From contig JAIEMM010000007.1 of the NCBI GenBank assembly GCA_019752125.1, forward strand, positions 1-61,654: a DNA stretch of 61,654 nt, written 5' to 3'. This stretch comes from Patescibacteria group bacterium (GTDB lineage: Bacteria > Patescibacteriota > Minisyncoccia > Phycocordibacterales > SBAW01). The position numbers and the translations under genes were made by a program. Positions 2,832 through 58,333 of this stretch are shown piece by piece. The first letter of the stretch is position 1, and every line of letters starts with the position of its first letter. Under the pieces are notes generated by a model. The model did not search any database. It saw only the letters and a program-made list of their open reading frames with translations, and was not told where the DNA came from.

Positions 2832-3812
2832 ATGACCTTTGCGATTTTAATGTCGCTCATTACTCTCGGCTTGTATTGTGTACAACAGCTGGGTGTCACT
2901 CTTGCTGTTGGTGCTGAAACAATATTGCTTGTTGCGTATCTTCAAGCGGTTCGTGATGGTGTTGTTGATGAAGAAGAAAAAGGGTTTGCCCGCGCAGTAC
3001 GAAGCGTTAAAGATTTCGGTTTGTTTTTCATAATCATTTCTGGAGGAGCTCTAGTGGCTAATCAGTTTTTTACCGGTCAGCTTAATGACTTTCTTTCAAT
3101 CACCGTGCTCTTTAAATGGAGCTTGATAGGTATCGGGCTTTTCTTAGGATTTGTTCGCGGTTCTGGTCTTATAACAGGATTGATACAAGGTCTTTCTGCG
3201 GGAACATGGTACGCGCTTTTTGCCGTCCATATCTTAGCGCCTGAAGCGCCTTGGGAGCAGCTCGTCATATTTTATGGGATCTGGCTTGTCGGATTTTGCA
3301 TGTGTTGGACCGTTCTTGTATTTTCATTACGAAATAAAAAAGCTGCGTATGTGGCCCCTGCGCGCCCGGTAGCTGCAAGTGCTGTGCCAAAGGCTGCTGT
3401 GGTAATTACTCCGGACAGGGTGAAGTCTACGCAGGAAACAGTCGTAGCCGAGCCTGCGCAAGCTCGTCCGATCGGTTCTGTCGAACCGCGGCCCGATCTT
3501 GCTCCGGCATCCGCGACATTTATTTCTCCGGTTACGATGACTATGCCGAAGCAGAACCCGGCTGCGGAGCCGAAGACCGACGCAGAGGGTTCTGCGCAGG
3601 CAAAACCACAACCTTCTATTCCGACTATTCCGACTCCTCCGACGCCGCCGTCTATGCCTATAGCGGCATCTATACCTCCTCCTGTTCCGCCACCTCCACC
3701 GCCAAAGGTTCCAGTGTCTGCTCCTACAACACCTCCGCCGCCAGCCTCATGGTTGCACGTGATGCCAAAAACACCTGAAGAGCTCGCAAAACGTAAGGAG
3801 CAGACGTCATAA
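2832..3812 (+). CDS. Hypothetical multi-pass membrane protein with long Pro/Ala-rich C-terminal tail
   Basis: About 5 hydrophobic segments in first 165 aa, then low-complexity Pro-rich tail; TGnTAAAAT 6 nt before ATG. Confidence 0.8.
   Translation: MTFAILMSLITLGLYCVQQLGVTLAVGAETILLVAYLQAVRDGVVDEEEKGFARAVRSVKDFGLFFIIISGGALVANQFFTGQLNDFLSITVLFKWSLIGIGLFLGFVRGSGLITGLIQGLSAGTWYALFAVHILAPEAPWEQLVIFYGIWLVGFCMCWTVLVFSLRNKKAAYVAPARPVAASAVPKAAVVITPDRVKSTQETVVAEPAQARPIGSVEPRPDLAPASATFISPVTMTMPKQNPAAEPKTDAEGSAQAKPQPSIPTIPTPPTPPSMPIAASIPPPVPPPPPPKVPVSAPTTPPPPASWLHVMPKTPEELAKRKEQTS
3547..3600. repeat. Palindromic element (45-nt stem-loop plus flanks), copy 1, within CDS
   Basis: Core 3559-3581 identical to 36829-36851; closing 9-bp stem GCAGAACCC/GGGTTCTGC. 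Confidence 0.85.
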
Positions 3813-4537: not shown

Positions 4538-5245
4538 ATGCTACGGTTTTTATGTGGGCTCGCGCTCGCGTTCCTTCTGGGAGCGTGTGTGAGCGAAGGT
4601 AGTGGCGGGTACGTTGCGACCTCTGCTCCGTCGGCTGCCCTCTCGTCTGGCGACATCTGCGACGACGACGAATGCGCCGTCATGGTGGCTGACCGCCCCA
4701 ACGAAGTGCTCTATTTCGGCCGTGGGCCCATGTGGGGCACGCCGCTCTACGCGATCGCCTGGGAACCCGGCTACAGTATCCCGTGGGGTCTCCGGTACTA
4801 CAATCGCTGGAACGGTGTCGTCGTCAACAGAACTGTTTTCCAGACGGTCGCCGTCGACCGCGGGTGGAATCGCTCGGTCTTCGCTGCCAACGTTGCGCCG
4901 CGCGGCGTCCATCCGTTCCGCGGCAATACTGCGGTGCGGCTGCCGAACGGCACTTCGGTCGCGTACAACAACCGTCGCGATCACATCAGGCCGGTCACCG
5001 GTTTGCCGTCTCGGCCTCCGGTGCATGCCGGTGTTGCTCCGCCGTCGCGGCCTCCGGTCCATACTGGTGTGACGCCCCGACCGCCGCAACACACGGCTCC
5101 GCCTGTGCGTACGGCGCCCCCGCCGTCGCGGCCTCCGGTGCAGCACGTTTCCACTCCGCCGCCCCGGGTCTATGCGCCTCCGCCTCGGCCTGCGCCGGCC
5201 CCTCAGCGCAGGAGCTGTGGCGGGCGCGGCGAGCCCAGGTGCTAA
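4538..5245 (+). CDS. GC-rich hypothetical lipoprotein with Pro/Arg-rich repetitive tail; accessory cassette
   Basis: Lipobox-like LLGAC at residue 17; SD GGAG upstream; about 67% GC in sampled line 4621-4680; three 21-nt PSRPPV(H/Q) repeats at 5005, 5041, 5122. Confidence 0.75.
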   Translation: MLRFLCGLALAFLLGACVSEGSGGYVATSAPSAALSSGDICDDDECAVMVADRPNEVLYFGRGPMWGTPLYAIAWEPGYSIPWGLRYYNRWNGVVVNRTVFQTVAVDRGWNRSVFAANVAPRGVHPFRGNTAVRLPNGTSVAYNNRRDHIRPVTGLPSRPPVHAGVAPPSRPPVHTGVTPRPPQHTAPPVRTAPPPSRPPVQHVSTPPPRVYAPPPRPAPAPQRRSCGGRGEPRC

Positions 5246-16046: not shown

Positions 16047-16880
16047 ATGCCGATAAAAGTTGCAAAAGCAGATGGCACGACTGAAAATTTTGACTCACTC
16101 AAACTTCGTTCATCTCTCCACAAAGCAGGAGCTAGCGAGGAGATCACTGTCCGTATCGTAGATGAAATATCCAAAGGGTTATACGATGGTATCCCAACAG
16201 AAGAGATATATAGACGTGCATTTGCGTTACTGCGCGGACATCGCCGAGACACAGCCTCACATTATTCGTTGAAACGTGCGATTCTTGAATTTGGACCATC
16301 TGGTTTTCCATTTGAAACGTACCTTGCTGCGTTATTTAAGGCAGAAGGATATACCGATGTAAAAACCGGCCAGATTATACAAGGCGGCTGTGTCGAGCAT
16401 GAGGTGGATGTCAGTATGAAAAAAGACGCCAAGAAATTTTTTGTCGAAGCAAAATTTCATAACAGCCCAGCTATAAAAAGTGATCTAAAAGTGTCTCTGT
16501 ATGTAAAAGCTCGGATCGATGATTTGAAAGCAGTGATGGGTGGAGAAACTATTATGGGAATGATAGTGACGAATACAAAGTTCACCACGAAGGCAATACA
16601 GTACGCGACCTGTGAGGGGCTAGAGCTTATGAGCTGGGGATATCCTCGTGGCCACAATCTCCATACTCGTATCGAGGCAGCAAAACTTTACCCTGTAACG
16701 GCACTTACCAGCCTTTCAAAAACTCAAAAAACAGCCTTGTTAACACAGAAAATAGTCCTCTGCAGCGAATTGAAGGACCGTACAGACGCTTTGTTGGCGG
16801 CTGGAATGGCCGCTAAAAAGATAGAGCAGGTGTTACATGAAGCCGCCCTATTGTGCGCTTCGGGGAAAGAGCTATCATAG
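16047..16880 (+). CDS. ATP-cone domain plus Mrr-like PD-(D/E)XK restriction endonuclease domain protein
   Basis: IKVAKADGTTENFDSLKLRSSL..AGA (ATP cone); EHEVDV...VEAKFH and IVTNTKFTTKAIQYA (Mrr_cat-like). Confidence 0.8.
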   Translation: MPIKVAKADGTTENFDSLKLRSSLHKAGASEEITVRIVDEISKGLYDGIPTEEIYRRAFALLRGHRRDTASHYSLKRAILEFGPSGFPFETYLAALFKAEGYTDVKTGQIIQGGCVEHEVDVSMKKDAKKFFVEAKFHNSPAIKSDLKVSLYVKARIDDLKAVMGGETIMGMIVTNTKFTTKAIQYATCEGLELMSWGYPRGHNLHTRIEAAKLYPVTALTSLSKTQKTALLTQKIVLCSELKDRTDALLAAGMAAKKIEQVLHEAALLCASGKELS

Positions 16881-16912: not shown

Positions 16913-17575
16913 ATGGATGAATCACAGAATTCTGGAAAGAAACCTCAGCTCTCTTGGGCACAGCCTGTTAGTTCAATTAAACCTACACAGATGAAGTCTT
17001 CGCAGAACCCGCCGATCGGTTCTGGGGAAACGCGGACGAATTCTGCTTCGGCACCTGCTCGCAGCGACCACACTATGCGAAATCTTATTATCGCAATAGT
17101 CGCAATACTCGTTGTAATGGGTATTGCGTGGGCTATAACAGGAAACAAAAAAGATTCAGACGCAGTATCAGACACAACCCCTTCAAAAACAGCAGGGAAA
17201 CCCTCAAGCGCTGCAGTTTCAGGAACACCATCTTCTACTGCGCAAGCTTCGTTCCCAAGTGGCCCACTTGTTATCACTTCGCCACAAAATGCAGGTCTTG
17301 AAATTGCTGTTTCAAATGTAGCAGTACAGGTACCAACATGGGTTGTTATTTACGAAAATTATAACGGACAGCCTGGCAATGTGCTTGGCGCGGCACTCTT
17401 CACAAAAGACCGCTCAAGCGGTGCCGTAGATTTGCTCCGCGGCACATTGCCTGGACAGAGCTACTTTGCAGGCGAGGCACGTGATGATGGCGACCACATG
17501 TTCTCCATGGCAAACGACCCAGCAACACGTGACGCAAACGGTAACCCTATAACCCTTAAGTTCGAAACAAAATGA
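16913..17575 (+). CDS. Hypothetical single-TM protein with Ser/Pro linker and C-terminal beta domain
   Basis: TM at about residues 58-76; WVVIYE...PGNVLGAALF motif. Confidence 0.7.
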   Translation: MDESQNSGKKPQLSWAQPVSSIKPTQMKSSQNPPIGSGETRTNSASAPARSDHTMRNLIIAIVAILVVMGIAWAITGNKKDSDAVSDTTPSKTAGKPSSAAVSGTPSSTAQASFPSGPLVITSPQNAGLEIAVSNVAVQVPTWVVIYENYNGQPGNVLGAALFTKDRSSGAVDLLRGTLPGQSYFAGEARDDGDHMFSMANDPATRDANGNPITLKFETK

Positions 17576-18050: not shown

Positions 18051-18881
18051 ATGAGTTCGTTCTACAAACCAAATCGAAGGCCCGATTATAATTATGGAGG
18101 TCCAAAATGGACGCTTTCTCGTTCAAAAATTGACCTCTTTATGGAGTGTAGTCGGTGTTTTTACATCGACAACAAACTTGGTGTTGCGCGCCCACCTGGT
18201 TTTCCATTTAACTTAAACTCAGCAGTAGACGCATTGCTAAAAAAAGAGCTCGATACGCATCGTGTAAACGGTACCCAGCATCCACTTGCAAAAGAGTATG
18301 GCCTTGATGCAATTCCACTCGCTCATGCAAAAATGGACGAGTGGCGCAACGCGCTCAGCCAAGGAGTGAAGTACGTACACCCAGCGACAGGCCTTACAGT
18401 ACGTGGAGGTGTTGACGATATCTGGGTAAACAAAGACGGCGAGCTTATCGTTATTGACTACAAAGCGACGAGCAAAGATGGAAAGATAGAATCTCTCGAT
18501 GAAGATTGGCATCGCGGATATAAGCGCCAGTTGGAAATATACCAATGGTTGCTTCGCATGAACGGATTCAAAGTATCCGATACGGGGTATTGGTTCTATG
18601 CAAACGCAACAAAAGACCGCGAAGCGTTTGATGCACGCCTCGACTTTGAGCTTACGCTTGTCCCATACACAGGTTCAACAGACTGGGTTGAAGATGTTCT
18701 GATACGCCTCAAGGCATGTCTCGACAGCGATGCATTGCCTCCAGCAGGGGAAGAGTGCGACTACTGCCGGTATCGTGAGGCTGCAGGGAAGGCTCTTATA
18801 AAATTCATTCCTTTAAAATCAAAAAAAATTGCTAAAGAAGAACCCGAATATGAGACACCTGAAAACTCCACCCTCTTCTGA
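18051..18881 (+). CDS. Stand-alone PD-(D/E)XK nuclease (AddB/Cas4-like)
   Basis: LSRSKIDLFMECSRCFY, GGVDDIW, IVIDYKAT, QLEIYQWLL, ECDYC. Confidence 0.85.
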   Translation: MSSFYKPNRRPDYNYGGPKWTLSRSKIDLFMECSRCFYIDNKLGVARPPGFPFNLNSAVDALLKKELDTHRVNGTQHPLAKEYGLDAIPLAHAKMDEWRNALSQGVKYVHPATGLTVRGGVDDIWVNKDGELIVIDYKATSKDGKIESLDEDWHRGYKRQLEIYQWLLRMNGFKVSDTGYWFYANATKDREAFDARLDFELTLVPYTGSTDWVEDVLIRLKACLDSDALPPAGEECDYCRYREAAGKALIKFIPLKSKKIAKEEPEYETPENSTLF

Positions 18882-32641: not shown

Positions 32642-34543
32642 ATGGCAAAAATACTTGGAATCGACTTGGGTACAACAAACTCTGCAATGGCAATTATGCG
32701 CGGAGGGGAGCCTCAGATTATTGAAAACGCAGAAGGCGCACGCACTACCCCCTCTGTTGTTGCCGCCTCTAAGACAGGGGAGCGCTTGGTTGGTCTTATT
32801 GCACGCCGCCAAGCGGTAACTAATCCTAAGAACACGGTCTACCAGATCAAACGCTTTATCGGCCACAACTTTGAAGAAGAATTTGTCCAGAAAGACAAAT
32901 CGGCTGTTCCATTTGAAATGCGTAAGACTGCCAACGGAGGCATTGAAGTAGAGATGGGCGGTCAATGGTCTCGCCCGGAAGAAATTTCTGCGATGATCTT
33001 GGGTAAGCTTAAAGCTGATGCGGAAAAACGCCTTGGCGAAACTATTACAGAAGCAGTTATCACTGTTCCTGCGTACTTTAACGACGCACAGCGCGCAGCA
33101 ACTCGCGACGCAGGTAAAATTGCCGGCCTCGATGTTAAGCGCATCATTAACGAGCCAACAGCCGCAGCGCTTGCATACGGATTCAACAAAAAGAAAGATG
33201 AGAAAGTTGTAGTCTTCGACTTCGGCGGCGGCACCTTCGATATTTCTGTGCTTGAAGTCGTTATGGCAGAAGGCAATGAAGGCTCTATTGAAGTACGTTC
33301 AACCGACGGCGACGCACACTTGGGCGGTAAGGATATCGACCAGAAAATTATCGACTGGATTGCAACAGAGTTCCAAAAGGAAAGCGGTATTGATGTCCGC
33401 AACGACCCACTCGCGCGCCAGCGCCTCGACGAAGCAGCTGAGAAGGCAAAAATTGAACTTTCGACTGCTATTGAAACTGAAATAAACATTCCGTTTATTA
33501 CCTCCGACTCTTCTGGCCCTCGTCATCTTTTGCTTAAGATGACTCGCGCAAAGCTTGAAGAGCTTTCTCAGGAATTCATTGACCGCGCACTTATGATCAC
33601 AAAGCGCGCAATGGAGGCATCGCCGTTTAAGGTAGCTGACATTAACGAAGTCATTCTCGTTGGTGGCCAGACCCGCATGCCAGCACTCCAAGCTGCCGTT
33701 GAAAAGTATTTCGGCAAGAAGCCAAACATGTCTGTAAACCCAGACGAAGTAGTCGCTATCGGCGCCGCAATCCAGGGAGGTATCCTCGGTGGAGATGTAC
33801 GCGACGTGCTTCTTCTCGATGTTATTCCACTCTCACTTGGTATTGAAACCATGGGCGGCGTTGCAACGAAGATCATTGAACGCAACACAACAATCCCTAC
33901 CAGCCGCTCACAGGTATTTTCAACTGCGGCGGACAACCAGACATCAGTAGAAATTCACATCTCACAAGGGGAGCGCGCAATGGCAGCAGACAACAAGTCT
34001 CTTGGACGCTTTGTTCTTGATGGAATTCCACCAGCACCGCGCGGCATGCCACAGGTTGAAGTTACCTTCGATGTAGACGCAAACGGCATTCTCTCTGTAA
34101 AAGCAAAAGATAAAGCAACCAATAAAGAGCAGTCTATCCGCATCGAAGCATCATCTGGCCTTTCAGATGCTGATATTGAAAAGATGCGTAAAGATGCGGA
34201 GGCAAATGCAGATTCTGATAAGCAGAAAGCAGAACTTGTAGAGGCTAAAAATATGGCAGAACAATCTGTCTACTCTGCAAAGAAAGCACTCGATGACAAC
34301 AAAGACAAACTTCCCGCAGAACTCGCCACTTCAATAAATGAAAAAATTGCTACAGTTGAAGCAAAGAAGGGTGGAGAAAATGCCGCTGAGATAAAAACAG
34401 CAGTCGAAGAACTCTCGAAAGAATTATCGAAAGTATACGAGGCGGTTCAAAAGACTTCAGGCAATAATCCGCCAGCAGGGGAACAAACTCCACCGCAGGA
34501 AAATCCTGAAACACCTCCAACAAGCAACACTGACCAAGCATAG
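32642..34543 (+). CDS. dnaK: Chaperone DnaK
   Basis: [40 protein letters not shown]. Confidence 0.99.
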
Positions 34544-34983: not shown

Positions 34984-36813
34984 ATGAAAGATAAAGCTCG
35001 AAAACGAAGCCTGAATAAAGCTGTATTGAAAATATACTGGCAACATACGCGCAAATATCCAGTTGCGGTAGGCCTGACTATTTTTGGTGTGATATTGACC
35101 CAAGCATGTTTTCTTGCGGCGCCTTTGTACATGCGAAAGTTTTTCAACCTACTCGCCTCAAACGCACCGACTGATGCCGCTGCACATCAATTGTTTGCCA
35201 TGCTTGCGATCGTAGCAGGCATATATTTGTTAGAGGTTGCCGGTCGCCGTATTGAAATGTTCAGTAACATTTACATGCAGGTACGTGTGATGCCCGCACT
35301 TATGGAGACAGCGTTCCAGCATCTCATGCGTCACTCGTATAACTTCTTTATCTCAAACTTTGCAGGCTCTTTGACCAGCAGGGTCAATCGTTTTGGCCGA
35401 GCATTTGAAGGCATCTTCGACAACATCGTCATCAGTTTTATGCCAACAGCGTTCTTCGTCACTGGCAGCGTTGTTGTGCTTTTCCTACATAACAAAATTC
35501 TCGGCACAGCGCTCGGAGTGTGGGCTGTTACTTTCGTATTATTCCAACTATGGGTATCAAAACTACGCCAACCTATACGTTCAGCACGTGCTGCAGCAGA
35601 AACAAAAATAACTGCAGTGCTTGCGGATTCAATTTCAAATCAAAATACAATTTCACTGTTCTCTGGCACCACACATGAACAGGGAATTTTCCACGATGTG
35701 GTGCAAGCGTGGGCCAAAATTACTTCACGATACTGGACAATAGATAGCTTGATATGGATGTGTATCGGTTTATTTATAACGGTTATAGAAATTGGCCTCC
35801 TGGCTGGAGCGGTACATTTTTGGCGTCTTGGACTCATGACTGTGGGGGATTTCGTCCTTATTCAGGCATATCTCATTACCACCTTTGATCGCCTTGTCGC
35901 TATCAATCGTGAACTGCGTGCATTCTTCTCTAACTTTGCTGACGCTGCGGAAATGGTTGAAATATTGGAAACACCTCACGAAGTTGCTGATATTCCAGGG
36001 GCCAAAAAACTCAAAACAACTGAAGGAAAAATTGAATTTAAGGATGCGTATTTTTATTTTAAAGAAGATGTTCCGGTCCTCGACAATCTAAACCTCACGA
36101 TCGCATCGCACCAAAAAGTAGCCTTGGTTGGCCCTTCAGGCGCAGGCAAATCAACTATCACCAAACTCCTGCTTCGTTTCTTCGATATAAAAGAGGGGAG
36201 CATAGAGATAGATGGGCAAAATATTGCGGACGTAACCCAGGATAGCTTGCGCGAAGCAATTTCGTTTGTCCCACAAGAACCCGTGCTCTTCCACCGCACC
36301 CTTCGAGAAAATATCGCCTACGGTAAGCGTGATGCAACAGATGAAGAGGTGTATGAGGCGGCAAAGAAAGCACACTGCCATGAATTTATTTCAGGCCTTA
36401 AAGATGGGTACGACACATACGTAGGGGAGCGCGGCGTGAAGCTCTCTGGCGGTGAACGCCAACGTGTTGCTATCGCTCGTGCAATCTTGAAGAACTCGCC
36501 GATTCTTATTTTGGACGAAGCAACTTCAAGTCTGGATTCAGAATCAGAAGCATTGATCCAAGACGCTCTCCAAACTCTTATGAAAGGCAAGACAGTGATT
36601 GTTATTGCGCACCGCCTTTCAACCATCATGAACATGGACAGAATTGTCGTAGTAGAAAATGGCACAATTGCCGCCGAGGGAACCCACACAGAATTGCTTG
36701 AGAAAAAAGGTCTATATCAAAAACTTTGGAGTATCCAAGCTGGAGGCTTTATCCCCGACGATGGGACTGGAGTTGAAGAGGTCGAGGAAGAAGACGCTGA
36801 GGTGACCGAGTAA
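34984..36813 (+). CDS. ABC transporter, fused permease/ATP-binding (MsbA/ABCB-type exporter)
   Basis: TM domain; GPSGAGKST, LSGGERQR, ILDEATSSLD, IAHRLST. Confidence 0.95.
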   Translation: MKDKARKRSLNKAVLKIYWQHTRKYPVAVGLTIFGVILTQACFLAAPLYMRKFFNLLASNAPTDAAAHQLFAMLAIVAGIYLLEVAGRRIEMFSNIYMQVRVMPALMETAFQHLMRHSYNFFISNFAGSLTSRVNRFGRAFEGIFDNIVISFMPTAFFVTGSVVVLFLHNKILGTALGVWAVTFVLFQLWVSKLRQPIRSARAAAETKITAVLADSISNQNTISLFSGTTHEQGIFHDVVQAWAKITSRYWTIDSLIWMCIGLFITVIEIGLLAGAVHFWRLGLMTVGDFVLIQAYLITTFDRLVAINRELRAFFSNFADAAEMVEILETPHEVADIPGAKKLKTTEGKIEFKDAYFYFKEDVPVLDNLNLTIASHQKVALVGPSGAGKSTITKLLLRFFDIKEGSIEIDGQNIADVTQDSLREAISFVPQEPVLFHRTLRENIAYGKRDATDEEVYEAAKKAHCHEFISGLKDGYDTYVGERGVKLSGGERQRVAIARAILKNSPILILDEATSSLDSESEALIQDALQTLMKGKTVIVIAHRLSTIMNMDRIVVVENGTIAAEGTHTELLEKKGLYQKLWSIQAGGFIPDDGTGVEEVEEEDAEVTE

Positions 36814-36816
36814 CGA

Positions 36817-36870
36817 CGAAGGCAACGTCGGCTGCGGAGCCGAAGACCGACACAGAGACGTTGCCGCAGG
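36817..36870. repeat. Palindromic element (45-nt stem-loop plus flanks), copy 2, intergenic
   Basis: Same core as 3547-3600; closing stem GGCAACGTC/GACGTTGCC. Confidence 0.85.
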
Positions 36871-39537: not shown

Positions 39538-39666
39538 ATTGGCCTCCTTCTATTTTGTTGAGGGGAACTAGCGAACTACTCGTATATTATATACCACGAA
39601 AGAGTGTTTCGTCAAGTTTATATAAACGAAGCCAGGTAACACTTTTTCTGCTATATTGTGGATAAT

Positions 39667-41004
39667 ATGCAACGGACACTTATAGGCGATTTGGGCGCGC
39701 ACAAAGGAGAAGAGGTAACCATTAAGGGCTGGGTCAGCGTGCGCCGCGACCAGGGCAAGATGGTGTTTTTTGATTTTCGCGATCGCTCGGGAACTGTACA
39801 GGGTGTCGTGCTTCCTCCGCCAGCTGGCGGACTCGCAACTATGGAGATTGCAAAAGAAATTCGCAACGAATATGTCGTTTCAGTAGATGGCAAAGTAAAT
39901 GCCCGCCCAGAAAAAAACGTTAACTCAAAAGTTCAGAACGGTGACATTGAACTTGAAGTAATGGGCATTACTATTTTGGCAAAAGCAGAGCCGCTTCCAT
40001 TCGATATGTCAGTAGATGGCTACAATCTCGACCTCACAACTGAACTCGACCATCGCGCACTTACACTCCGCCACCCACGCCTCCAGGCTATCTTTAAAGT
40101 GCAGGCCGTTATCATCGACTCGTTCCGTGAATACATGAAGTCTCAGGACTTTATGGAATTCCAAGCACCTGCAATTACACCAGCAACCGCAGAAGGCGGA
40201 GCAGAAGTATTCCAAGTTCAATACTTCGACAAGAAAGCATACCTCACACAGTCGCCACAGCTCTACAAGCAAATTGTGATGACTGCGTTTGAACGCGTGT
40301 TCTCAGTAAACAAAGTATTCCGCGCAGAACCATCTGCAACCACGCGCCATATTACAGAAATCGTTTCTCTCGATGCCGAAATGGCATTTATCGAATCGTG
40401 GACGGATGTACGTGATATGTCTGAAGAGACAGTACGTTTTGTACTCCAGCAGGTAGAAAAGAAATGCGCCCGCGAACTCGAAGTGTTGGGTGCAGTACTT
40501 CCAACAATGATAGAAAAGACTCCAACATATTCTCTTACTGAAGCGTTTGCAAAACTCGGTGTTCCAGAAGATAAAGATCTTAATCCAGAACAAGAACGTA
40601 AGCTGTGCGAAATAGTAAAAGAAGAAACTGGTTCTGACTTTGTATATGTCTACGGCTATCCAACAATGAAGAAGCCGTTTTACGTATATCCAAACCCAGA
40701 GAATCCAGAATTTAACGAAGGTATGGACCTTCTATGCCGCGGTGTTGAATGGCTCTCAGGCGGCCGCCGCGTAAACGACTACGCACAGCTTATGCAACAT
40801 GTCGAAAAGTGGGGGATGGATCCTAAGAAAATCGAAATGTTCCTCGAAGCCTTCCGCTATGGCGCACCACCCGAAGGCGGCTTTGCTTTGGGTGCTGAAC
40901 GCATGACCATGCAGATCCTCGGCCTCAAAAACATCCGTGAAGCAACTCTCTTCCCACGCGACATGAACCGCATCGACTTGCCGCTTTCAGAGACTGAGAT
41001 TTAA
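39667..41004 (+). CDS. aspS: Aspartate--tRNA ligase, archaeal-type (likely non-discriminating)
   Basis: OB fold GWVSVRRDQGK, EGGAEVF, QSPQLYKQ, FRAE, GGFALGAER, FPRD; about 445 aa without GAD domain. Confidence 0.93.
   Translation: MQRTLIGDLGAHKGEEVTIKGWVSVRRDQGKMVFFDFRDRSGTVQGVVLPPPAGGLATMEIAKEIRNEYVVSVDGKVNARPEKNVNSKVQNGDIELEVMGITILAKAEPLPFDMSVDGYNLDLTTELDHRALTLRHPRLQAIFKVQAVIIDSFREYMKSQDFMEFQAPAITPATAEGGAEVFQVQYFDKKAYLTQSPQLYKQIVMTAFERVFSVNKVFRAEPSATTRHITEIVSLDAEMAFIESWTDVRDMSEETVRFVLQQVEKKCARELEVLGAVLPTMIEKTPTYSLTEAFAKLGVPEDKDLNPEQERKLCEIVKEETGSDFVYVYGYPTMKKPFYVYPNPENPEFNEGMDLLCRGVEWLSGGRRVNDYAQLMQHVEKWGMDPKKIEMFLEAFRYGAPPEGGFALGAERMTMQILGLKNIREATLFPRDMNRIDLPLSETEI
39816..39831. repeat. 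Perfect 16-bp palindrome TCCGCCAGCTGGCGGA in aspS (PPAGG)
   Basis: Identical copies at 41124 and 43449. Confidence 0.9.
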
Positions 41005-41019
41005 GCCTATAATTAGGCT

Positions 41020-42450
41020 ATGAAATTCCAAACGACTCCTGCAAAGGATGCTATTACTGTTGATTTTATTGAAGGCTCGCTGAATCGTTTTGATGGAAAA
41101 ACTCTCTCTATCGGATATGGTAATCCGCCAGCTGGCGGAAAGCCGCTTAACCGTCGCAAATTTGTTTTGTTTACCCGTAAAGTTGTCTCAACCGCAAAAC
41201 AGAATAAACTAAAAACTATTTCTGTTGATTTTAAGAGTCTGAAATCAATCGCTCCAAAAGATTTCTCTGATGCAGAGGTTGCAAAAGTAGCTGCTACATC
41301 GTTTGTAATGGCGGACTACGAACACAATACATATAAGCGCAAACCAAAGGACGGCTTCGCACGTGTTGAAGTGGTGTGTTTATTGAACGCATCTAAAGAA
41401 GCTATTGAAGGTGCGAAGAAGGGCCACTGGATAGCAGAGGAAGTAAATGCCTGCCGCGAGTTGGCAAACACTCCGGGCGGTGACTTAACTCCGAAACAAT
41501 TTTCTGCACTCGCAAAGAAAACTATTAAGGGTGCAGATACTAAAGTTACTGTACTTGGCCGCAAAGAAATGGAGAAACTCGGCATGGGTGGAGTTGTCGG
41601 CATTGGCAAAGGCTCAGACAATGAGCCGCAGTTTGTTGCCGTTGAATATTGGGGGGCCAGCCCCTCGACAGGCTCGGGGCGATTAAAACCTGTGGTTTTA
41701 ATCGGTAAAGGCGTAACGTTTGACTCAGGAGGCCTTAACTTGAAACCAGGCGACCACATGTACGAGATGCACATGGACATGTCGGGCGGGGCAGCAGTGC
41801 TCTATACCGTTGCGCTCGTAGCAAAACTTAAATTGAAAGCAAACGTTGTCGGCCTTATCCCAACTGTAGAAAATATGCCAGGCCAGCACGCAGTCCGCCC
41901 AGGCGACATGCTCAAGTCTATGTCTGGCCGCCACATTGAAGTACTTAACACAGACGCAGAAGGTCGCGTTATCTTGGCAGACGGTATTACCTACGCGAAG
42001 AAATACAACCCTGCAGTTGTTGTAGATGTTGCAACACTCACTGGTGCGGCACTCACAGCTCTCGGTACCCAGTGTTCAGCAGTAATGACTAACGACCAAA
42101 AGCTTGAAGACACACTTCGCGCGCTTGGAGAAGAGTCTGGCGACTATGTCTGGCCATTCCCAGTCTGGGAAGAATACGAAGCAATGACTAAAGGAATCTT
42201 CGGCGATGTTCCAAACATCTCAACAGACGGAAATAGCCGCTATGGAGGGGTTATTGCAGGAGGCATGTTCCTACATGAATTTGCGAAGGATTTGGACTGC
42301 CCATGGGCCCACATAGACATGGCCCCTCGTATGACATCAACTCCAGGCGAACACCTCGCTAAAGGCGCTGTAGGGGCTCCTGTGCGTCTTCTTTTGGCTC
42401 TTGTAGAACGCTACGCCCTCGGCCATAGCCCTACGGGCGAGGCAAAATAA
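41020..42450 (+). CDS. pepA: Leucyl aminopeptidase (M17)
   Basis: GKGVTFDSGG, MHMDMSGGAAV, NTDAEGR, DVATLTGA. Confidence 0.96.
   Translation: MKFQTTPAKDAITVDFIEGSLNRFDGKTLSIGYGNPPAGGKPLNRRKFVLFTRKVVSTAKQNKLKTISVDFKSLKSIAPKDFSDAEVAKVAATSFVMADYEHNTYKRKPKDGFARVEVVCLLNASKEAIEGAKKGHWIAEEVNACRELANTPGGDLTPKQFSALAKKTIKGADTKVTVLGRKEMEKLGMGGVVGIGKGSDNEPQFVAVEYWGASPSTGSGRLKPVVLIGKGVTFDSGGLNLKPGDHMYEMHMDMSGGAAVLYTVALVAKLKLKANVVGLIPTVENMPGQHAVRPGDMLKSMSGRHIEVLNTDAEGRVILADGITYAKKYNPAVVVDVATLTGAALTALGTQCSAVMTNDQKLEDTLRALGEESGDYVWPFPVWEEYEAMTKGIFGDVPNISTDGNSRYGGVIAGGMFLHEFAKDLDCPWAHIDMAPRMTSTPGEHLAKGAVGAPVRLLLALVERYALGHSPTGEAK
41124..41139. repeat. 16-bp palindrome copy in pepA (PPAGG)
   Basis: Identical to 39816-39831. 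Confidence 0.9.
41660..41680. repeat. 21-nt hairpin within pepA CDS (SPSTGSGR)
   Basis: GCCCC/GGGGC and CGA/TCG stems in a loop just before the conserved KPVVLIGKG. Confidence 0.55.
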
Positions 42451-42870: not shown

Positions 42871-43614
42871 ATGCCGATAAACGTAAAAACTGATGTATTT
42901 GAAGGGCCGCTGGACCTACTTCTTGAGCTTATAGAAAAGCGCAAGCTGCTTATTAACGATGTCTCACTCGCGTCGGTTACTGATGAATACATCGCGCGAA
43001 TCTCAGGGAATGAATTGCCTGTAGGGGAGACAGCTGAGTTCGTTGCACTCGCTGCAACACTGCTTCTTATTAAATCCCGCTCGCTTCTGCCAACTCTCGA
43101 GCTTTCTCCGGATGAGTCAAAAGATATTAAGGAACTTGAATACCGCTTAGCGGTGTACCAACTTATCAAAGAGGCGGCGAGAGGTGTTAGTAGTTCACTA
43201 GAAAACGCTCCGCTCTACGAAGGCAACCCGCCTGCAGTTGAACCAATGTTTTTATTTGATACATCTGCAACATTGGAGTCGCTTCGTGCATCTATTCAAA
43301 AGGTTATAGAAGAATTCCCTGTACAAATTTCTCTACCAAAAGTAGCAGTGAAGAAAATTGTTTCTATTGAAGAAATGATCCAGAAAATGGCGGGCAGAGT
43401 GTCATCTGCATTCAGTGTTTCTTTTAAGGAATTCTCCGGGTTAAACAATCCGCCAGCTGGCGGAAGGGGTGAACATATTAAACATGAAATAATTGTGAGT
43501 TTTCTAGCACTCTTAGAGTTAGTGAAGCAGGGTATAATTAAAGCACATCAGGGCGATCACTTTAGCGACATCACGCTTGAGTCCGATGCTGTATCTACAC
43601 CAACCTATGAATGA
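42871..43614 (+). CDS. scpA: Segregation and condensation protein A (kleisin)
   Basis: FEGPLDLLLELI, AATLLLIKSRSLLP, IIVSFLALLELVK. Confidence 0.95.
   Translation: MPINVKTDVFEGPLDLLLELIEKRKLLINDVSLASVTDEYIARISGNELPVGETAEFVALAATLLLIKSRSLLPTLELSPDESKDIKELEYRLAVYQLIKEAARGVSSSLENAPLYEGNPPAVEPMFLFDTSATLESLRASIQKVIEEFPVQISLPKVAVKKIVSIEEMIQKMAGRVSSAFSVSFKEFSGLNNPPAGGRGEHIKHEIIVSFLALLELVKQGIIKAHQGDHFSDITLESDAVSTPTYE
43449..43464. repeat. 16-bp palindrome copy in scpA (PPAGG)
   Basis: Identical to 39816-39831. Confidence 0.9.
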
Positions 43615-52036: not shown

Positions 52037-52810
52037 ATGACAGGATCTCAAATGTGGACCTCGTACTACACGATGGCCCGAAAAGAATTTGTGCGCATGA
52101 TACGTATCTGGTCGCAGACCCTTCTTCCACCTATCGTCACAACAAGTCTCTACTTTGTAGTGTTTGGCTCCTTCATCGGCTCCCAACTTGCTGAAATTAA
52201 TGGTTTCAGCTACATGCAGTTTATCGTGCCAGGCCTCATCATGATGTCGATGATCACCAGCTCATACATGAACACGGTGTCGACCTTCTATTTTGCAAAA
52301 TGGCAGCGCACGCTGGATGAAGTTCTTGTATCACCAACACCAAATTGGATTGTTATCGCAGGCTTTATCAGCGGGGGAATGATGCGTGGACTTATGGTGG
52401 GAGCCTTAGTGCTTCTTGTGTCACTCTTCTTTACGCACCTTGCGATCCACAGCGTGGTTATACTCGTGCTTGCAGGCATCCTTACAACAATGCTGTTCTC
52501 ACTTGCCGGCCTTGTAAACGGCATATTTGCAAAAGGCTTTGACGGTATCTCTATTGTTCCAACATTCGTTCTCACCCCGCTTACATACCTGGGTGGCGTA
52601 TTCTACTCAGTAAACCAATTCTCAGATTTCTGGCGCACGGTATCGCTGTTCAACCCGATTCTCTACATGATCAACGCCTTCCGTTACGGCTTCCTTGGCA
52701 TTAGTGATGTATCGATTGCCTTTAGCTTCTCAATGCTTGTGACAGCCAACGTAGTGCTCCTTGCACTCACGGCGTACTTGTTTAAGAAAGGGTGGGGCTT
52801 CAAGAACTAA
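52037..52810 (+). CDS. ABC-2 type transporter permease (YadH-like)
   Basis: QTLLPP, YMQFIVPGLIMM, PLTYLGGVFYS, NPILYMINAFRYG. Confidence 0.93.
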   Translation: MTGSQMWTSYYTMARKEFVRMIRIWSQTLLPPIVTTSLYFVVFGSFIGSQLAEINGFSYMQFIVPGLIMMSMITSSYMNTVSTFYFAKWQRTLDEVLVSPTPNWIVIAGFISGGMMRGLMVGALVLLVSLFFTHLAIHSVVILVLAGILTTMLFSLAGLVNGIFAKGFDGISIVPTFVLTPLTYLGGVFYSVNQFSDFWRTVSLFNPILYMINAFRYGFLGISDVSIAFSFSMLVTANVVLLALTAYLFKKGWGFKN

Positions 52811-53475
52811 AAAAGTTTTTGTGGCTTCTTGCCTCGCTTCCACTCAGTAAATTTGAGTGTATTGCGTTCAAGAGGGGAGGTCTTGCGTAAGCGTCTACGC
52901 GCGCTGTTTGCAATGATAGAAATGTGGGGCGACTCATCTAACTCTTCAGCAACGAAATCAAGATGCCCTTCCTTCCCCTCTGAGACAACCCATTGCTCTG
53001 GCTTATATCGACGTAGGTCGAATGGTTTTGAAAATGCCTTTAGGGTTTTGACGCCGTCATCTAGATAGTATTCGTGAAAATATGACATCGCGAGCTCTCG
53101 CGGGGTTTTATACACAGCATCGCGCCAACGCAACACAGCATGGTTAGTTTTACTTATTGCACCCCACCCGCCCTTTTCTTGAAAGAGGGTGACAACGTGG
53201 TCGTCGTCGTGCGCAAGCGTCTGCAGATCTAAAAGAAGAGGCTTGTGGCCATGGTAGGCGAGAGCGGCGGCGGCAAACAGCGCGCCTTCCATACAGTGAG
53301 CCACTCTTTCCCTTAGCATCTGACGAGGGGAACGGAGCGTGTCTCCGCGGGGTTCAAAATTTATAGGTAGGCTGTCGAGATAATCCTGTATCTTTTGAGG
53401 AGTATCCAATCGAGAAAAAACCTTGTGCTCCTCCTTCGTTAACAATTTCTTCAGGTTCTTTGTATACACTTTCAT
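52807..53475 (-). CDS. Hypothetical protein, transglutaminase-like (Cys-His)
   Basis: AHCMEGALFAAAAL, DDDHVV, WGAISKTNH. Confidence 0.75.
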   Translation of the reverse strand: MKVYTKNLKKLLTKEEHKVFSRLDTPQKIQDYLDSLPINFEPRGDTLRSPRQMLRERVAHCMEGALFAAAALAYHGHKPLLLDLQTLAHDDDHVVTLFQEKGGWGAISKTNHAVLRWRDAVYKTPRELAMSYFHEYYLDDGVKTLKAFSKPFDLRRYKPEQWVVSEGKEGHLDFVAEELDESPHISIIANSARRRLRKTSPLERNTLKFTEWKRGKKPQKLF

Positions 53476-53534
53476 ATGTACCAGCTCATCCGTTTAGAGT
53501 CGTATTTATATTTAACCACATTTAGTTACCATCT

Positions 53535-53690
53535 ATGTTATATACCATTGCAATCGTCTTATTGATCTTGTGGCTACTGGGTATCGTCTCGTCGTACACC
53601 ATTGGCGGGTTTATTAACATCCTGCTTGTTGTCGCCGTAATCCTCGTCCTTATCCGCCTTATCCGCGGAGAGAAACCGTTCAATATATAA
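53535..53690 (+). CDS. lmo0937-family small membrane protein (51 aa)
   Basis: Manual translation MLYTIAIVLLILWLLGIVSSYTIGGFINILLVVAVILVLIRLIRGEKPFNI. Confidence 0.85.
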   Translation: MLYTIAIVLLILWLLGIVSSYTIGGFINILLVVAVILVLIRLIRGEKPFNI

Positions 53691-53724
53691 AAAAACCGTT
53701 CACCTCGGGGGAGGGAACGGCTTT
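53691..53724. terminator. Bidirectional terminator
   Basis: CCGTTC...GAACGG stem with A-run before and T-run after, between convergent ORFs. Confidence 0.7.
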
Positions 53725-53738
53725 GAATACTGTCGAGG

Positions 53739-54233
53739 CTACCCACGCTCGTACGAAGAGAGCGCGTACGAAGAGGGCATAAAACGAAACGCGCTACCAG
53801 CCTTGATGGAATCCTGGCACCTGCGAACATCTTCCACCGCCAACCGACGCCCGAGAGGGTCGATCGCCTTGCTGCCGCTGACCTTGTTCCAGATGAGAGC
53901 TTTCGCCTTGTCGGCCTCGTCCCCAAAGAGCTGGATGATGGTGCCCTCCACCTTCATCTTGGAGACGTTCACCTGGTTGTAGCTGCCGTAGAGAGTGACC
54001 TCCTGCGTGGCGGCAAAGAGCTGGATCATCTCCGGATCTGCCGTGCAGAATATGACTTCTTGGGTCGCACCATCCTTCTCGCTGAAGGCGATAATGGCGC
54101 AGTGCCGTAAAAAGTCTTGACTCTCTTCTGGTTCGAAAGGATGTGCGTCGCCACGAGCCTTGAAGAACATGCTCCAGATGTGGGGCAAGTGTTTTACCCC
54201 ATTGTGCACGCTGAGAGGCTTGTACTGAGACAT
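53739..54233 (-). CDS. GC-rich hypothetical protein (164 aa); accessory cassette
   Basis: SD AAGGGAG before ATG 54233; GC-rich codon usage. Confidence 0.75.
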   Translation of the reverse strand: MSQYKPLSVHNGVKHLPHIWSMFFKARGDAHPFEPEESQDFLRHCAIIAFSEKDGATQEVIFCTADPEMIQLFAATQEVTLYGSYNQVNVSKMKVEGTIIQLFGDEADKAKALIWNKVSGSKAIDPLGRRLAVEDVRRCQDSIKAGSAFRFMPSSYALSSYERG

Positions 54234-54310
54234 TTTTCTCCCCTTTTTTGTAAGAACTTCCTGCACAAATTACCATACTCTCTCCGCAAATCAACAGAGA
54301 AGAGAAAAGA

Positions 54311-54336
54311 AAAAGCCACTCTTTCGAGGGGCTTTT
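54311..54336. terminator. Bidirectional terminator
   Basis: AAAAGCC-A-CTC-TTTC-GAG-G-GGCTTTT. Confidence 0.75.
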
Positions 54337-54359
54337 GATTGGGTAGGGGATCTAGTCGC

Positions 54360-54530
54360 TTATGGGTGCGTATGCACCTTCGGATAGCGCCAGTTTATAA
54401 CCATGCCCAACACGTAGATCAAGGCGACCGCCAAGGGTCCCCACCATCCGAACGCGTTGTAGGCCATGATGGCCAACAGCAAAATGAAGCCGTGGGCCAT
54501 CGTCACAGTCCCAATCCTTATGCCACCCAT
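54360..54530 (-). CDS. Small membrane protein (56 aa); accessory cassette
   Basis: Manual translation MGGIRIGTVTMAHGFILLLAIMAYNAFGWWGPLAVALIYVLGMVINWRYPKVHTHP; SD GGGAGAG. Confidence 0.65.
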   Translation of the reverse strand: MGGIRIGTVTMAHGFILLLAIMAYNAFGWWGPLAVALIYVLGMVINWRYPKVHTHP

Positions 54531-54828
54531 TTCGCTCTCCCAAGTTACGTTGAAGAAGTTAGGTAATATACTCTCAACAAGTCCTAAAGAACTATATCAC
54601 GTTTTTTAATTTTAGCAATACACCCAAGGCATATTAGTAGGGAAGGGCTTCCCTGTTTTTTTGGAGAAAAAATTTTCAACAAATTTTTATAGTTTTTTAT
54701 CAAACCAAACGGTAGGGATATCAGAAATAATTCTCAGACAGGTGCAGGGAAGAGAACAGGGACACAAAGTACAAGTCGTGATTCAACGGATCCAAGCCCA
54801 AGGGGATACTGAATTTTAATATAGGTAT

Positions 54829-54856
54829 ACGTCGCACAATATACCTTTTGCGACGC
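54829..54856. other. Candidate chromosome dimer resolution (dif-like) site, 11-6-11
   Basis: ACGTCGCACAA-TATACC-TTTTGCGACGC; arms 9/11 inverted; in gene-free gap at the orientation switch; KOPS polarity. Confidence 0.65.
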
Positions 54857-55002
54857 TTATTAGGCTCAATATAGAGGGGGCCTGGCTTAAGCCCTGTTTG
54901 AGCCGCTGGCTTTCAATTAATCCTTCCCCGCCCTATAGTTACTTTAGATTTGTCTCTTAGAATTATTTTATTTTTATTTAATTTACTCTCCTCTTTTCAC
55001 TT

Positions 55003-55353
55003 ATGAACAGGAACTTGGCTGTCTTGATACTTTTAGTCGCCGGACTGGTTTTGTACGGATTCGCCAATACTCCAACTCAGCCCAATACTCAGACAGCCTC
55101 TGTAGGCTCTTATAACGAGTCCGTTGTCACAAACCCGACCTCTGACACCCGTACGGATACCCAAACAGATGCCGAGGACAGTCCTCGGTGTAATCCAAAC
55201 TATTCTGGTTGTCTAAAATCTGACGCGAGTGATTATGACTGTGCAGAAGGTTCTGGAGATGGTCCGTACTACACGGGCCCGGTTCGTGTCATCGGCTACG
55301 ACCAATACGGACTCGACAGAGACCACGACGGCTGGGCCTGCGAAAAAAATTAA
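55003..55353 (+). CDS. Exported protein with C-terminal Excalibur-like Ca-binding / Cys domain
   Basis: Signal/TM, Thr-rich linker, CNPNYSGC...DYDC...GLDRDHDGWACE. Confidence 0.8.
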   Translation: MNRNLAVLILLVAGLVLYGFANTPTQPNTQTASVGSYNESVVTNPTSDTRTDTQTDAEDSPRCNPNYSGCLKSDASDYDCAEGSGDGPYYTGPVRVIGYDQYGLDRDHDGWACEKN

Positions 55354-55361
55354 CCAGACAA

Positions 55362-55380
55362 GGGGATTGACGACTTCCCT
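55362..55380 (+). promoter_or_regulatory. 19-nt promoter repeat copy 1 (contains -35 TTGACG)
   Basis: GGGGATTGACGACTTCCCT identical to 55548-55566; -10 TAATTT 16 nt after -35. Confidence 0.75.
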
Positions 55381-55423
55381 GTTCGTGGTAATTTGATTCT
55401 AGTAATTAACTGAGGAGGGTTCT

Positions 55424-55504
55424 GTGGGTCCTGACCATCTTTTGATTTGTGGGGCGGTAGTCGTCGCAATCCTTATCATAATCGCTCGTGCCCGTGAGTC
55501 TTAG
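55424..55504 (+). CDS. 26-aa hydrophobic peptide; accessory cassette
   Basis: SD GAGGAGG; GTG start; MGPDHLLICGAVVVAILIIIARARES; terminator 55507-55534. Confidence 0.55.
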   Translation: MGPDHLLICGAVVVAILIIIARARES

Positions 55505-55547
55505 CCGGCCGCCTTCTCCAGGCGGTCTTTTTTTATGTGGCCATGCG

Positions 55548-55566
55548 GGGGATTGACGACTTCCCT
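55548..55566 (+). promoter_or_regulatory. 19-nt promoter repeat copy 2
   Basis: Identical to 55362-55380; -10 TATTGT 16 nt after -35. Confidence 0.75.
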
Positions 55567-55613
55567 TTCTGTAGTATTGTGTTTTGGCACCATGTAACTG
55601 GAGGGCAAGACAA

Positions 55614-56015
55614 ATGAGCACGTTCAAGAATATCGAAGACATCGTGAAGGCGGATTTCAAGAAGGGTCTGAAGCTTCTGGACCGGGTCATGCCGGGCTGG
55701 CGCGCCAAGGTCAAGAAGCCCGTCAGCATCAGCGACGCCGCATCCTGCCCCATCGCCCAGATCACGGGCTCGAACTTCTTCCACGCCGACCTGGGGAAGT
55801 TCGGCTTCGACCCCGACACCGTCGCCCAGTTCAAGGACGTCTCGCTGAAAGGTTCCGACAGGGTTGCCCGCCAAGAGTGGGCGTCCCAGTTCGGCTTCTC
55901 GACCGGTGAACGGCACCAGAAGAACGAAAGAGGCCACTGGTGCCTGAGCACGCTGGGCTACGCGACGGAGATGTTCAACAAACTCTGGAACACGGAACTC
56001 GGCTTCACCGCCTAG
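55614..56015 (+). CDS. GC-rich hypothetical protein (133 aa), phage-like; accessory cassette
   Basis: SD GGAGG; about 63% GC in sampled line 55741-55800; LLDRVMPGW...C..AQ..G motif. Confidence 0.75.
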   Translation: MSTFKNIEDIVKADFKKGLKLLDRVMPGWRAKVKKPVSISDAASCPIAQITGSNFFHADLGKFGFDPDTVAQFKDVSLKGSDRVARQEWASQFGFSTGERHQKNERGHWCLSTLGYATEMFNKLWNTELGFTA

Positions 56016-56034
56016 ATCGCGTCCCAACAGCCAC

Positions 56035-56067
56035 AAAGGCTTCTCTTTCGAGAAGCCTTTTTCTTTT
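56035..56067. terminator. Bidirectional terminator
   Basis: AAAGGCTTCTC-TTTC-GAGAAGCCTTT. Confidence 0.85.
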
Positions 56068-56094
56068 ATAAAAACAGGGAACTGACTCCCCTAT

Positions 56095-56388
56095 CTACCA
56101 AAAAAGATTTCCGGAGGAATAGAATAAAGATATGATGACATACGGCGCGACTATCACCACACTCTGTAGAGCACTCAAGCTCTTTCTTTTCAAACAAAGC
56201 CAAACTAGGCCTGCAGAAATACCGCAGATCGCTATCAATACAAGATCTATTAAACCGATGACCATATACGAAGTGCTCATGGCACTGTACGCAAGGGCAA
56301 GAACAGCACCTGGTGCAAGTATGTACACTATATAAACCACAACAATACTGTGGACGGCGGCAAGAAAGGTTAAAATCCATTTAGACAT
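56095..56388 (-). CDS. Small 3-TM membrane protein (97 aa)
   Basis: MSKWILTFLAAV...; TATAAT 6 nt before ATG. Confidence 0.65.
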   Translation of the reverse strand: MSKWILTFLAAVHSIVVVYIVYILAPGAVLALAYSAMSTSYMVIGLIDLVLIAICGISAGLVWLCLKRKSLSALQSVVIVAPYVIISLFYSSGNLFW

Positions 56389-56460
56389 AGGATGATTATA
56401 AGGCACTAGTGTAAAAATCTCAGCTATTGACGAGATTAGAATATATGTTAGTGTGCGGCG

Positions 56461-56582
56461 AGTCCTGAGGTGAATCTGCTGCCCCAAACAGCCGAGACTA
56501 ATCTGACCTGTTCCTTTCCATTTCCACGTTCCTGGAGCAAGTTGGTGTCCCTTAGTCTTCACCTCAGGACAACTTCTTTTTT
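56461..56582 (+). ncRNA. Candidate structured small RNA of about 120 nt
   Basis: TTGACG-16-TAGTGT promoter (56427-56454); 13-bp closing stem 56462-56474/56558-56570; inner stem AGACTAA/TTAGTCT; 3' U-tract. Confidence 0.55.
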
Positions 56583-56640
56583 GTGATATCGTAGGCATGC
56601 ACCAAGAGTATCCTTAAGAGATACAAACGGAGGGCTGGAG

Positions 56641-56793: not shown

Positions 56794-56896
56794 ACCGCCC
56801 AGGTTTTCAATACAAAAGCCGCCCCTCATCAGGGCGGTCTTTCTTTTTATGTCTGTCCCAGGTAGTGTATTCAAAGTCTGTTCCCTGGGGGGTGTC

Positions 56897-57046: not shown

Positions 57047-57066
57047 CTGCCATTTTTGGCAGTTTT

Positions 57067-58301: not shown

Positions 58302-58333
58302 AGTTTAACCTATCTGGTACTATCTTTCTACAT

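Follow-up and report, generated by a model that had tools for sequence, protein, structure and literature searches.

Dispersed hairpins with exchangeable arms and cores in genes of Candidatus Adlerbacteria, a probable non-autonomous mobile element

What keeps two hairpins alike in nearly every nucleotide except those of their stems? The question is raised by a 61,654-nt stretch of DNA from a Patescibacteria group bacterium (contig JAIEMM010000007.1, positions 1 to 61,654; the whole stretch is called the window here), in which two hairpins, copy 1 and copy 2 of what we term family 1, had been noticed from the sequence alone. Both have the order arm, core, arm′. Copy 1 (3547-3600) reads CGAA-GCAGAACCC-GGCTGCGGAGCCGAAGACCGACGCAGA-GGGTTCTGC-GCAGG and copy 2 (36817-36870) reads CGAA-GGCAACGTC-GGCTGCGGAGCCGAAGACCGACACAGA-GACGTTGCC-GCAGG. 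Read letter for letter, the sequence bears out the layout given in the original prediction: the copies have the same offsets and agree at 35 of the 36 non-arm positions, the arms differ between the copies yet form a perfect 9-bp complement in each, and the stem-to-stem span measures 45 nt. Both copies fold as predicted. At three or fewer mismatches, the window contains exactly two occurrences of the 27-nt core, compared with 0.00 in 100 shuffles, and a covariance model built from the known family-1 copies, under which copy 2 scores 79.6 bits, revealed no further family-1 copies there. The two copies and their surroundings are as follows.

3542-3609, + strand: family-1 copy 1, in the open reading frame (ORF) 2832-3812, with the translation MPKQNPAAEPKTDAEGSAQAKP; outer helix 3544-3547/3599-3602, bulges GAA 3548-3550 and GCA 3596-3598, arms 3551-3559/3587-3595, core 3560-3586.
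36817-36870, + strand: the untranslated copy 2 of family 1, in the 3′ region of an ABC-transporter gene; arms 36821-36829/36857-36865, core 36830-36856, with a core G to A change at 36852.
2832-3812, + strand: host gene of copy 1 and of a copy of a second family, encoding a membrane protein of 326 aa whose C-terminal tail is disordered and rich in Pro and Ala.
34984-36813, + strand: ABC-transporter gene, with its TAA stop at 36811-36813, 4 nt before copy 2.

As had been stated, copy 1 lies within a coding sequence, in frame in ORF 2832-3812, and copy 2 between genes. All six frames are open across the 68-nt block of copy 1. The start of dnaJ (36967) lies 97 nt past copy 2, which is truly untranslated because an upstream TGA at 36798 closes the frame that copy 1 uses. 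We considered copy 2 as a frameshifted C-terminal extension of the ABC transporter and ruled this out, given the TGA 18 nt upstream and the lack of a start codon. No T-tract or other terminator-like site is present at copy 2, which also rules out an intrinsic terminator. Rfam 15 yielded zero matches at gathering threshold over the window, and the two copies gave only chance-level miRNA-like matches (E above 0.4). No RNA run was found to contain the locus.

Copies outside the window were sought by scanning public collections with part of the core (an 18-mer), so that the number of carrier species is a lower bound. Among the at least 118 matches listed in species-representative genomes, about 114 were chance occurrences in GC-rich genomes, without arms. 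At least four were true copies, all in metagenome-assembled genomes (MAGs) of Candidatus Adlerbacteria. A metagenome scan recovered two of these loci and one new locus, and a scan of viral contigs returned zero copies. A peptide-anchored protein search gave eight proteins only, adding the host families P0003, P0004 and P0005/P0006; P0004 (locus L123) is the ortholog of the window's 2832-3812 gene and carries a family-1 copy at the same site. P0002, P0011 and P0016 are known at the protein level. The hosts are topA, dnaE, recG, an rseP-like gene, an HtrA-like protease gene and three unknown genes, and every copy known outside the window is within a long ORF. The original prediction had staked itself on the existence of further copies, and eight unrelated host genes carry them. 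The hairpins are a dispersed element and do not match by chance. Metagenome contigs match the element alone and then run into unrelated flanks, and the depth over the second family in the X5 data is about 100, against 0-28 on either side (roughly four-fold or higher), indicating that the repeats are multi-copy. The family has been found so far only in Candidatus Adlerbacteria, a lineage of the candidate phyla radiation (CPR)/Patescibacteria.

In all eight host families, the family-1 unit is read on the same strand and in the same frame, giving the peptide ..(K/E)QNPAAEPKTDAEGSAQ.., which includes ..AEPKTDAE... If the three frames were equally likely, chance agreement would have a probability of about (1/3)^7. 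The alternative frames of the unit would encode very basic or Cys-rich peptides, and a filter for a harmless peptide would be the simplest explanation for the one shared frame. With in-gene copies all on one strand and in one frame, peptide tolerability is part of the story. The in-gene sites other than TopA are disordered tails or linkers. A region-limited protein search with RecG recovered only the query, because the shared peptide is too short to score.

In an alignment of 11 copies, the 9-bp arms are paired in 100% of cells, and seven of the nine arm pairs have changed on both sides; shuffled alignments average 4.5 such pairs over all 17 pairs of the structure. Not one of the observed measures of pairing or covariation was reached in 500 shuffles, and pairing fell to 28-47% in slid-partner controls. 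The stem covariation first proposed from two copies is therefore upheld in the larger set. The arm sets are related stepwise (GCAGAACCC, GCAGAACTC, GGCGAAGTC, GGCAACGTC, GACATACTC), and a 4-bp outer helix beyond the 3-nt bulges (GRA/GCA) is partly supported. On a defined top strand, the copies share the frame TGCC-GRA-arm9-core27-arm9′-GCA-GGCW, with a core that begins GGCYGCGG and ends CRGA, and each unit forms one hairpin, about 59-68 nt long. One earlier statement needs adjusting here. The proposed 45-nt unit is indeed a dispersed hairpin, but the true unit is larger than 45-54 nt, as 68 nt are identical between orthologs. The inner hairpin, GGCU-GCGG-AGCC, is present, but just one one-sided change within it (C to U, which keeps G.U) is informative. 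The core is invariant across MAGs of different habitats, and copies in different genes agree at synonymous positions.

Several readings of this structure could be set aside. Identical arms in different genes rule out a right arm made by snap-back copying of host sequence. Ribozyme, integron attC and diversity-generating retroelement readings were ruled out, as their defining features are absent.

The window also contains a sister family (family 2) and a copy that combines the two families.

3447-3513, - strand: family-2 copy in ORF 2832-3812, with the + strand translation EPAQARPIGSVEPRPDLAPAS; arms 3458-3466/3494-3502 (8/9 paired), core 3467-3493.
16991-17057, - strand: mosaic copy, at the N-terminus of ORF 16913-17575.

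On the minus strand, family 2 reads TGCC-GGA-GCAAGATCG-GGCCGCGGTTCGACAGAACCGATCGGA-CGAGCTTGC-GCA-GGCT. It has the same outer frame, 9+27+9 layout and core ends as family 1 and is inverted relative to the gene, so that its sense-strand peptide is ..PAQARPIGSVEPRPD... The copy at 3447-3513 forms an inverted pair with copy 1, 26 nt apart (3514-3539). An inverted family-2 unit 26-68 nt upstream of a family-1 unit recurs at L119 and L124; TopA, DnaE, RseP and P0006 have single units, and L095 has another kind of hairpin upstream. Other family-2 copies are at L119, L124, L128 and L129 and in the proteins P0002, P0003, P0007 and P0008 (at least six further proteins). In the ortholog L123, a shorter, different sequence replaces the family-2 copy.

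Arms and cores are not inherited as fixed sets. In the mosaic copy, a family-2-type core (17011-17037) is enclosed by arms of the family-1 type (17002-17010, GCAGAACCC, with 17038-17046, GAATTCTGC); on the - strand, the top strand of the element, two of the arm pairs are G.T. Family-1 arms also enclose a third 27-nt core, GGTTGCGTCGCCCCAAGCGACGTCAGA, in a 1291-nt X5 contig and in protein P0002; this core folds into its own 6-bp hairpin, and the variant encodes QNPVA(S/P)PQA(T/A)SEGSAQ. One set of arms is thus found around three different cores, and one core between four sets of arms. The conserved core with variable arms of the original prediction was seen again when we searched by core, but a search by arms showed the reverse, with other 27-nt cores. 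Judged by these sequences, the group is a mosaic superfamily in which arms and cores have been recombined among members, because the same arms carry other 27-nt cores.

Three other features were noted at these loci. In recG, the family-1 copy is preceded, 19 nt upstream, by a 77-nt GC-rich hairpin of another family (L095:5537-5613). A PNPase gene contains a decayed unit that resembles family 2 (L125:8647-8713). At L124:1370-4968, the gene for P0003, host to a pair of family-1 and family-2 units, is directly upstream of PrgI-like, TraC-like and TraG/VirD4-like genes, a type IV secretion-like cluster on a CPR contig.

We then considered which nucleic-acid strand folds. Each copy was oriented by its outer frame, a criterion that is independent of the arms. 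On the top strand, the one-sided arm changes comprise 13 G.T cells and 0 A.C cells in eight copies, with two other mismatches. The G.T cells are in L079, the family-1 and family-2 copies of L119, family 2 of L124, L125-8647 (a copy found by a model that itself favours G.U) and L131, with two in the window's 17002 copy and five in the X1 contig. In 11 of 13 copies the top strand gives a better fold than the bottom strand, whether RNA or DNA parameters are used. Because copies of family 1 run in the sense of their host genes and those of family-2 type run antisense, the asymmetry tracks the strand of the element, whatever the direction of the host gene, and not the transcript. This makes a protein-binding mRNA motif, which the original prediction had offered as one possibility, less likely. 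Strand-biased deamination through transcription or replication was ruled out as the source of the asymmetry, as the two families at L119 have opposite polarity in one gene. The asymmetry points to folding of one DNA strand.

The clearest view of turnover comes from TopA, for which we ran a protein search with the TopA host and aligned 120 orthologs. Basal TopAs (738-740 aa) have a short turn at the position of the element. In one clade an older insertion adds about 45 aa, and the element lies at the tip of this insertion. Related genes without the element are found here: TopA orthologs at 90-94% protein identity (81-87% nucleotide identity among the four genes compared) lack it or carry a different hairpin. 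The L085 TopA has the family-1 unit in the loop, and P0011-P0014/L132 read FG(K/Q)(D/E)KKKDG..F, without an element. In the L131 TopA (L131:3001-5403), the loop lies about 1.25 kb into the gene and is occupied by another hairpin, with a 16-bp stem (GCAGAAAGACCCTTCG), one G.T on the element's top strand, the apex CGGTGAGAGGAGCACCG and termini GTCGAAGCAGAA...TTTTGCGAAGA as in family 1, in the opposite orientation. A third insert occupies the loop in the P0016 TopA (85%), and L130 has a short scar-like sequence there. No target-site duplication is visible at the TopA site or around the other copies. These alignments show absence of the element and re-use of its site at this loop; the exact ends and the direction of gain or loss fall outside what they show.

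The two family-1 sites of the window were also compared with relatives. In a relative's contig (about 83% identical, X5 record 13), the spacer between the ABC-transporter gene and dnaJ is 128 nt shorter and has no match to the core. The site of copy 1 behaves differently in the ortholog L123, in which all 68 nt of 3542-3609 are identical (68/68) within an aligned 1.6 kb of 79% identity, in which the identical run next in length measures 35 nt. Something holds such a letter-perfect copy unchanged, which may be gene conversion, re-insertion or host-level selection.

The best-supported reading of these data, which we hold to be probable but well short of assured, is that the hairpin is a non-autonomous mobile element like the repetitive extragenic palindromic (REP) sequences and Rickettsia palindromic elements (RPEs), propagated or maintained via a hairpin formed by one DNA strand. 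One DNA strand would fold, and the element would be copied or maintained through the folded form. A trans-acting, hairpin-specific enzyme would recognise the apex and the stem-loop junctions. The prime suspect would be a Y1/HUH transposase, similar to IS200 or to the REP-associated tyrosine transposases (RAYTs), a role that we only infer. The arms would need only to pair, and the core and junctions would have to hold their sequence, so that lineages that stay mobilisable would come to have covarying arms around a constant core. Inside genes, a copy would persist only if its frame and its loop were tolerated and it was read as a harmless, hydrophilic peptide.

Several observations weigh against this reading. 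A Pfam scan of 40 of the 75 non-overlapping window ORFs of at least 70 aa found no transposase, in agreement with the earlier remark that the window holds no candidate mobilising enzyme, and none was present among the genes called around the fetched loci (including L123-L132). Few copies are known: two plus two in 61 kb, and eight proteins from the peptide-anchored search. We saw no clean empty site whose ends are exact, and in the TopA nucleotide comparison 27 nt are replaced by 63 or 81 nt, which is not a simple gain of 51-57 nt. The perfect orthologous copy at L123 is unexpected for a passively decaying selfish insert. Finally, the G.T asymmetry comprises few independent events, and five of the 13 G.T cells come from one contig that was rebuilt from loose ends and has two unlocated mismatches.

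Some of the same observations would sit well with a signal that is useful to the host and is kept by purifying selection in each gene, either as a structure in mRNA (a stabiliser, or a site for an RNase or RNA-binding protein) or as a hairpin or cruciform site in DNA; mobility would then explain arrival only. Such selection would account for the 68/68 nt kept between orthologs that are 79% identical, synonymous positions included, and for the invariant core in MAGs from different habitats. All family-1 copies are sense, with one-sided stem changes that are G.U in mRNA, and copy 2 lies just past a stop codon, a place where REP-type hairpins stabilise transcripts (PMC3733652). However, the one-sided changes of family-2 and mosaic copies are C.A in mRNA and become G.T only on the antisense DNA, so the mRNA helix is not what is preserved in them. 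In addition, close TopA orthologs do without the element or have a different one, the host genes share no common pathway, and there is neither an Rfam match nor a terminator-like tail. We consider a host signal unlikely, though it deserves to be kept in mind. Least probable of all, to the point that we give it very little weight, is a selected peptide module (a linker or short linear motif, ..AEPKTDAE..) to which the hairpin is incidental. The shared frame and the hydrophilic, acidic peptide of the in-gene copies are what it would predict, but it would not predict synonymous positions that are identical across genes, an untranslated copy 2 or an insert that TopA orthologs can dispense with, and perfect or wobble 9-bp arms with seven compensated pairs cannot arise from selection on a peptide.

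The units might instead have spread without any enzyme, by template switching and gene conversion, with piecemeal homogenisation and with selection filtering for tolerated loops. The mosaic of arms with three cores and of a core with four arm sets has the look of such a process, as does a TopA site with no target-site duplication or clean boundary, and an identical orthologous copy amid diverged flanks fits conversion from other copies. It would also account for the 40 scanned window ORFs in which no transposase was seen. Yet template switching at palindromes should soon perfect the arms and does not predict G.T changes that persist on one strand. Conversion requires a homologous donor and recipient, which leaves first arrival at a new site unexplained, and near-identical units in eight unrelated genes, in MAGs from different sites, call for a transfer step. 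On balance, we judge spread of this kind to be improbable, and continue to favour the non-autonomous mobile hairpin.

Other features of the window were recorded in passing. A perfect 14-nt palindrome, CCGCCAGCTGGCGG, occurs at 39817-39830, 41125-41138 and 43450-43463, with 19 nt identical in two of the copies. It is in frame in the unrelated ORFs 39658-41004 and 41020-42450 and in the ScpA gene (42871-43614), where it is always read (N/P)PPAGG, and a degenerate copy lies near 34466, in the C-terminal tail of ORF 32642-34543. It looks like another, much shorter family of in-frame palindromes. ORF 4538-5245, very rich in GC and in proline, contains imperfect repeats of 46 nt, spaced by 36 and 81 nt (5005-5167), and has no Pfam match. 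In the region 52807-59386, mostly on the minus strand, eight of the nine ORFs scanned (116-222 aa) lack a Pfam match; the only one to score encodes an RNase_T-like exonuclease (57702-58301). This region may be accessory or mobile. A fusion of an ATP-cone domain with an Mrr-type restriction-endonuclease domain and, nearby, a PD-(D/E)XK nuclease gene lie at 16047-16877 and 18051-18878; no evidence here ties either the fusion or the nuclease gene to the hairpins.

Rickettsia and a few REP-rich bacteria supply most of the documented cases of hairpin repeats that reside in essential genes without disrupting them. CPR bacteria have tiny genomes with scant intergenic space, in which a repeat must be translatable to survive. 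Such a repeat lets one follow, as in an experiment set up by nature, the mutual adjustment of proteins and selfish DNA. The family may supply new surface loops, and its strand-specific mismatch signature predicts a single-stranded DNA intermediate. There are practical consequences as well: the elements break metagenome assemblies, with Logan contigs stopping at them, and they inflate apparent protein divergence in CPR phylogenomics.

How, then, do the hairpins relate to known elements? We found no description in the literature of such elements in CPR bacteria. As far as the summaries in PMC10969869 and PMC3733652 go, RPEs (Ogata et al. 2000) are in-frame palindromic repeats in Rickettsia genes, about 100-150 bp in length. 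The Adlerbacteria hairpins are like them in being in-frame palindromes in unrelated, functional housekeeping genes of a small-genome bacterium, with one conserved peptide per family (shared by eight host gene families for family 1), tolerated loops, several co-existing families and no identified transposase. Their insertion sites, at the tip of the TopA loop and in disordered tails and linkers, appear to be compatible with the fold of the host protein. Unlike RPEs of 100-150 bp, the unit is a single hairpin of 59-68 nt, and it is most conserved at its 27-nt apex, with stems that covary or swap. The hairpins are set apart from RPEs by description and by taxon (CPR Adlerbacteria), not by comparison with the RPE-1 to RPE-10 consensus sequences.

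REPs are short imperfect palindromes whose stem measures 5-13 bp and whose loop measures 2-20 nt (PMC3733652, Table 1), and many intragenic REPs are within replication and repair genes (Di Nocera et al. 2013, PMC3733652). Our hairpins resemble REPs, their paired forms (REPINs) and the associated RAYTs in several ways: they are short repeats with 8-13-bp stems, occur both downstream of and inside genes and have replication and repair hosts (topA, dnaE and recG). REP units commonly come as inverted dimers; in our set, an inverted family-2 unit accompanies the family-1 copy in a dimer-like layout in the window, L119 and L124, and single units are present in TopA, DnaE, RseP and P0006. Strand-specific folding of a single strand is also what a Y1/HUH transposase would use. 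The 9-bp stem with its 4-bp outer helix is within the REP range, but the conserved loop of 27 nt exceeds 2-20 nt. The unpaired GTAG/CGTC tag of REPs is absent, as the 5′ arm is flanked by CGAA, CGGA, CGCA, GAGC or CCCC and the flank on the other strand is CCTGC. In contrast to REPs, the loop is conserved in sequence and contains a mini-hairpin, and the copy number looks low. MITEs (miniature transposable elements with inverted repeats) measure 70-300 bp, with terminal inverted repeats of 15-30 bp and target-site duplications; the Adlerbacteria unit is too short and has no duplication.

IS200/IS605 elements transpose as one folded DNA strand through an HUH Y1 enzyme, with two subterminal hairpins around their cargo. 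In both systems the hairpin of one strand would be recognised, neither terminal inverted repeats nor target duplications would be expected, and the shape of the stem and the flanking guide nucleotides outweigh the stem sequence. The Adlerbacteria unit differs in being a lone hairpin with no tnpA nearby in the ORFs and genes scanned. Integron attC sites have conserved ends (the R and L boxes) and a variable centre, and flank gene cassettes next to an integrase. They too are strand-specific, folded single-stranded DNA substrates defined by structure, with stems that covary between sites, but their conserved ends and variable centre are the reverse of the Adlerbacteria element, and they are not known to lie within reading frames. 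Yeast mitochondria contain GC-rich hairpins known as GC clusters. The mitochondria of nematomorphs have coding palindromes, which encode conserved protein regions (PMC6649704). Mitochondrial palindromes likewise are hairpins kept in translated genes, so that coding and strict secondary structure can co-exist; they differ in being organellar and in lacking the shared 27-nt apex, and the nematomorph repeats are not in dispensable loops.

We conclude that the element works like REP, RPE and MITE elements without membership in any of them, because it departs from REPs in its tag and loop length, from RPEs in its size and from MITEs in its size and the lack of target duplications. Whether this makes it a class of its own is a more tentative matter. 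It is possible, though we are doubtful, that these are dual-coding single-hairpin elements apart from REP/RAYT, RPEs and MITEs, which would be defined by an asymmetric apex and its junctions and not by their ends. One strand would move, arms and cores would be exchanged, the same loops would be re-occupied, and a hairpin-specific enzyme yet to be identified would keep orthologous copies letter-perfect. If so, such a class would exist in Adlerbacteria, perhaps in Patescibacteria more widely. The conserved apex with its exchangeable arms and cores, the hot-spot loop of TopA and the strand-specific G.T signature are the features of the element that are worth following up.

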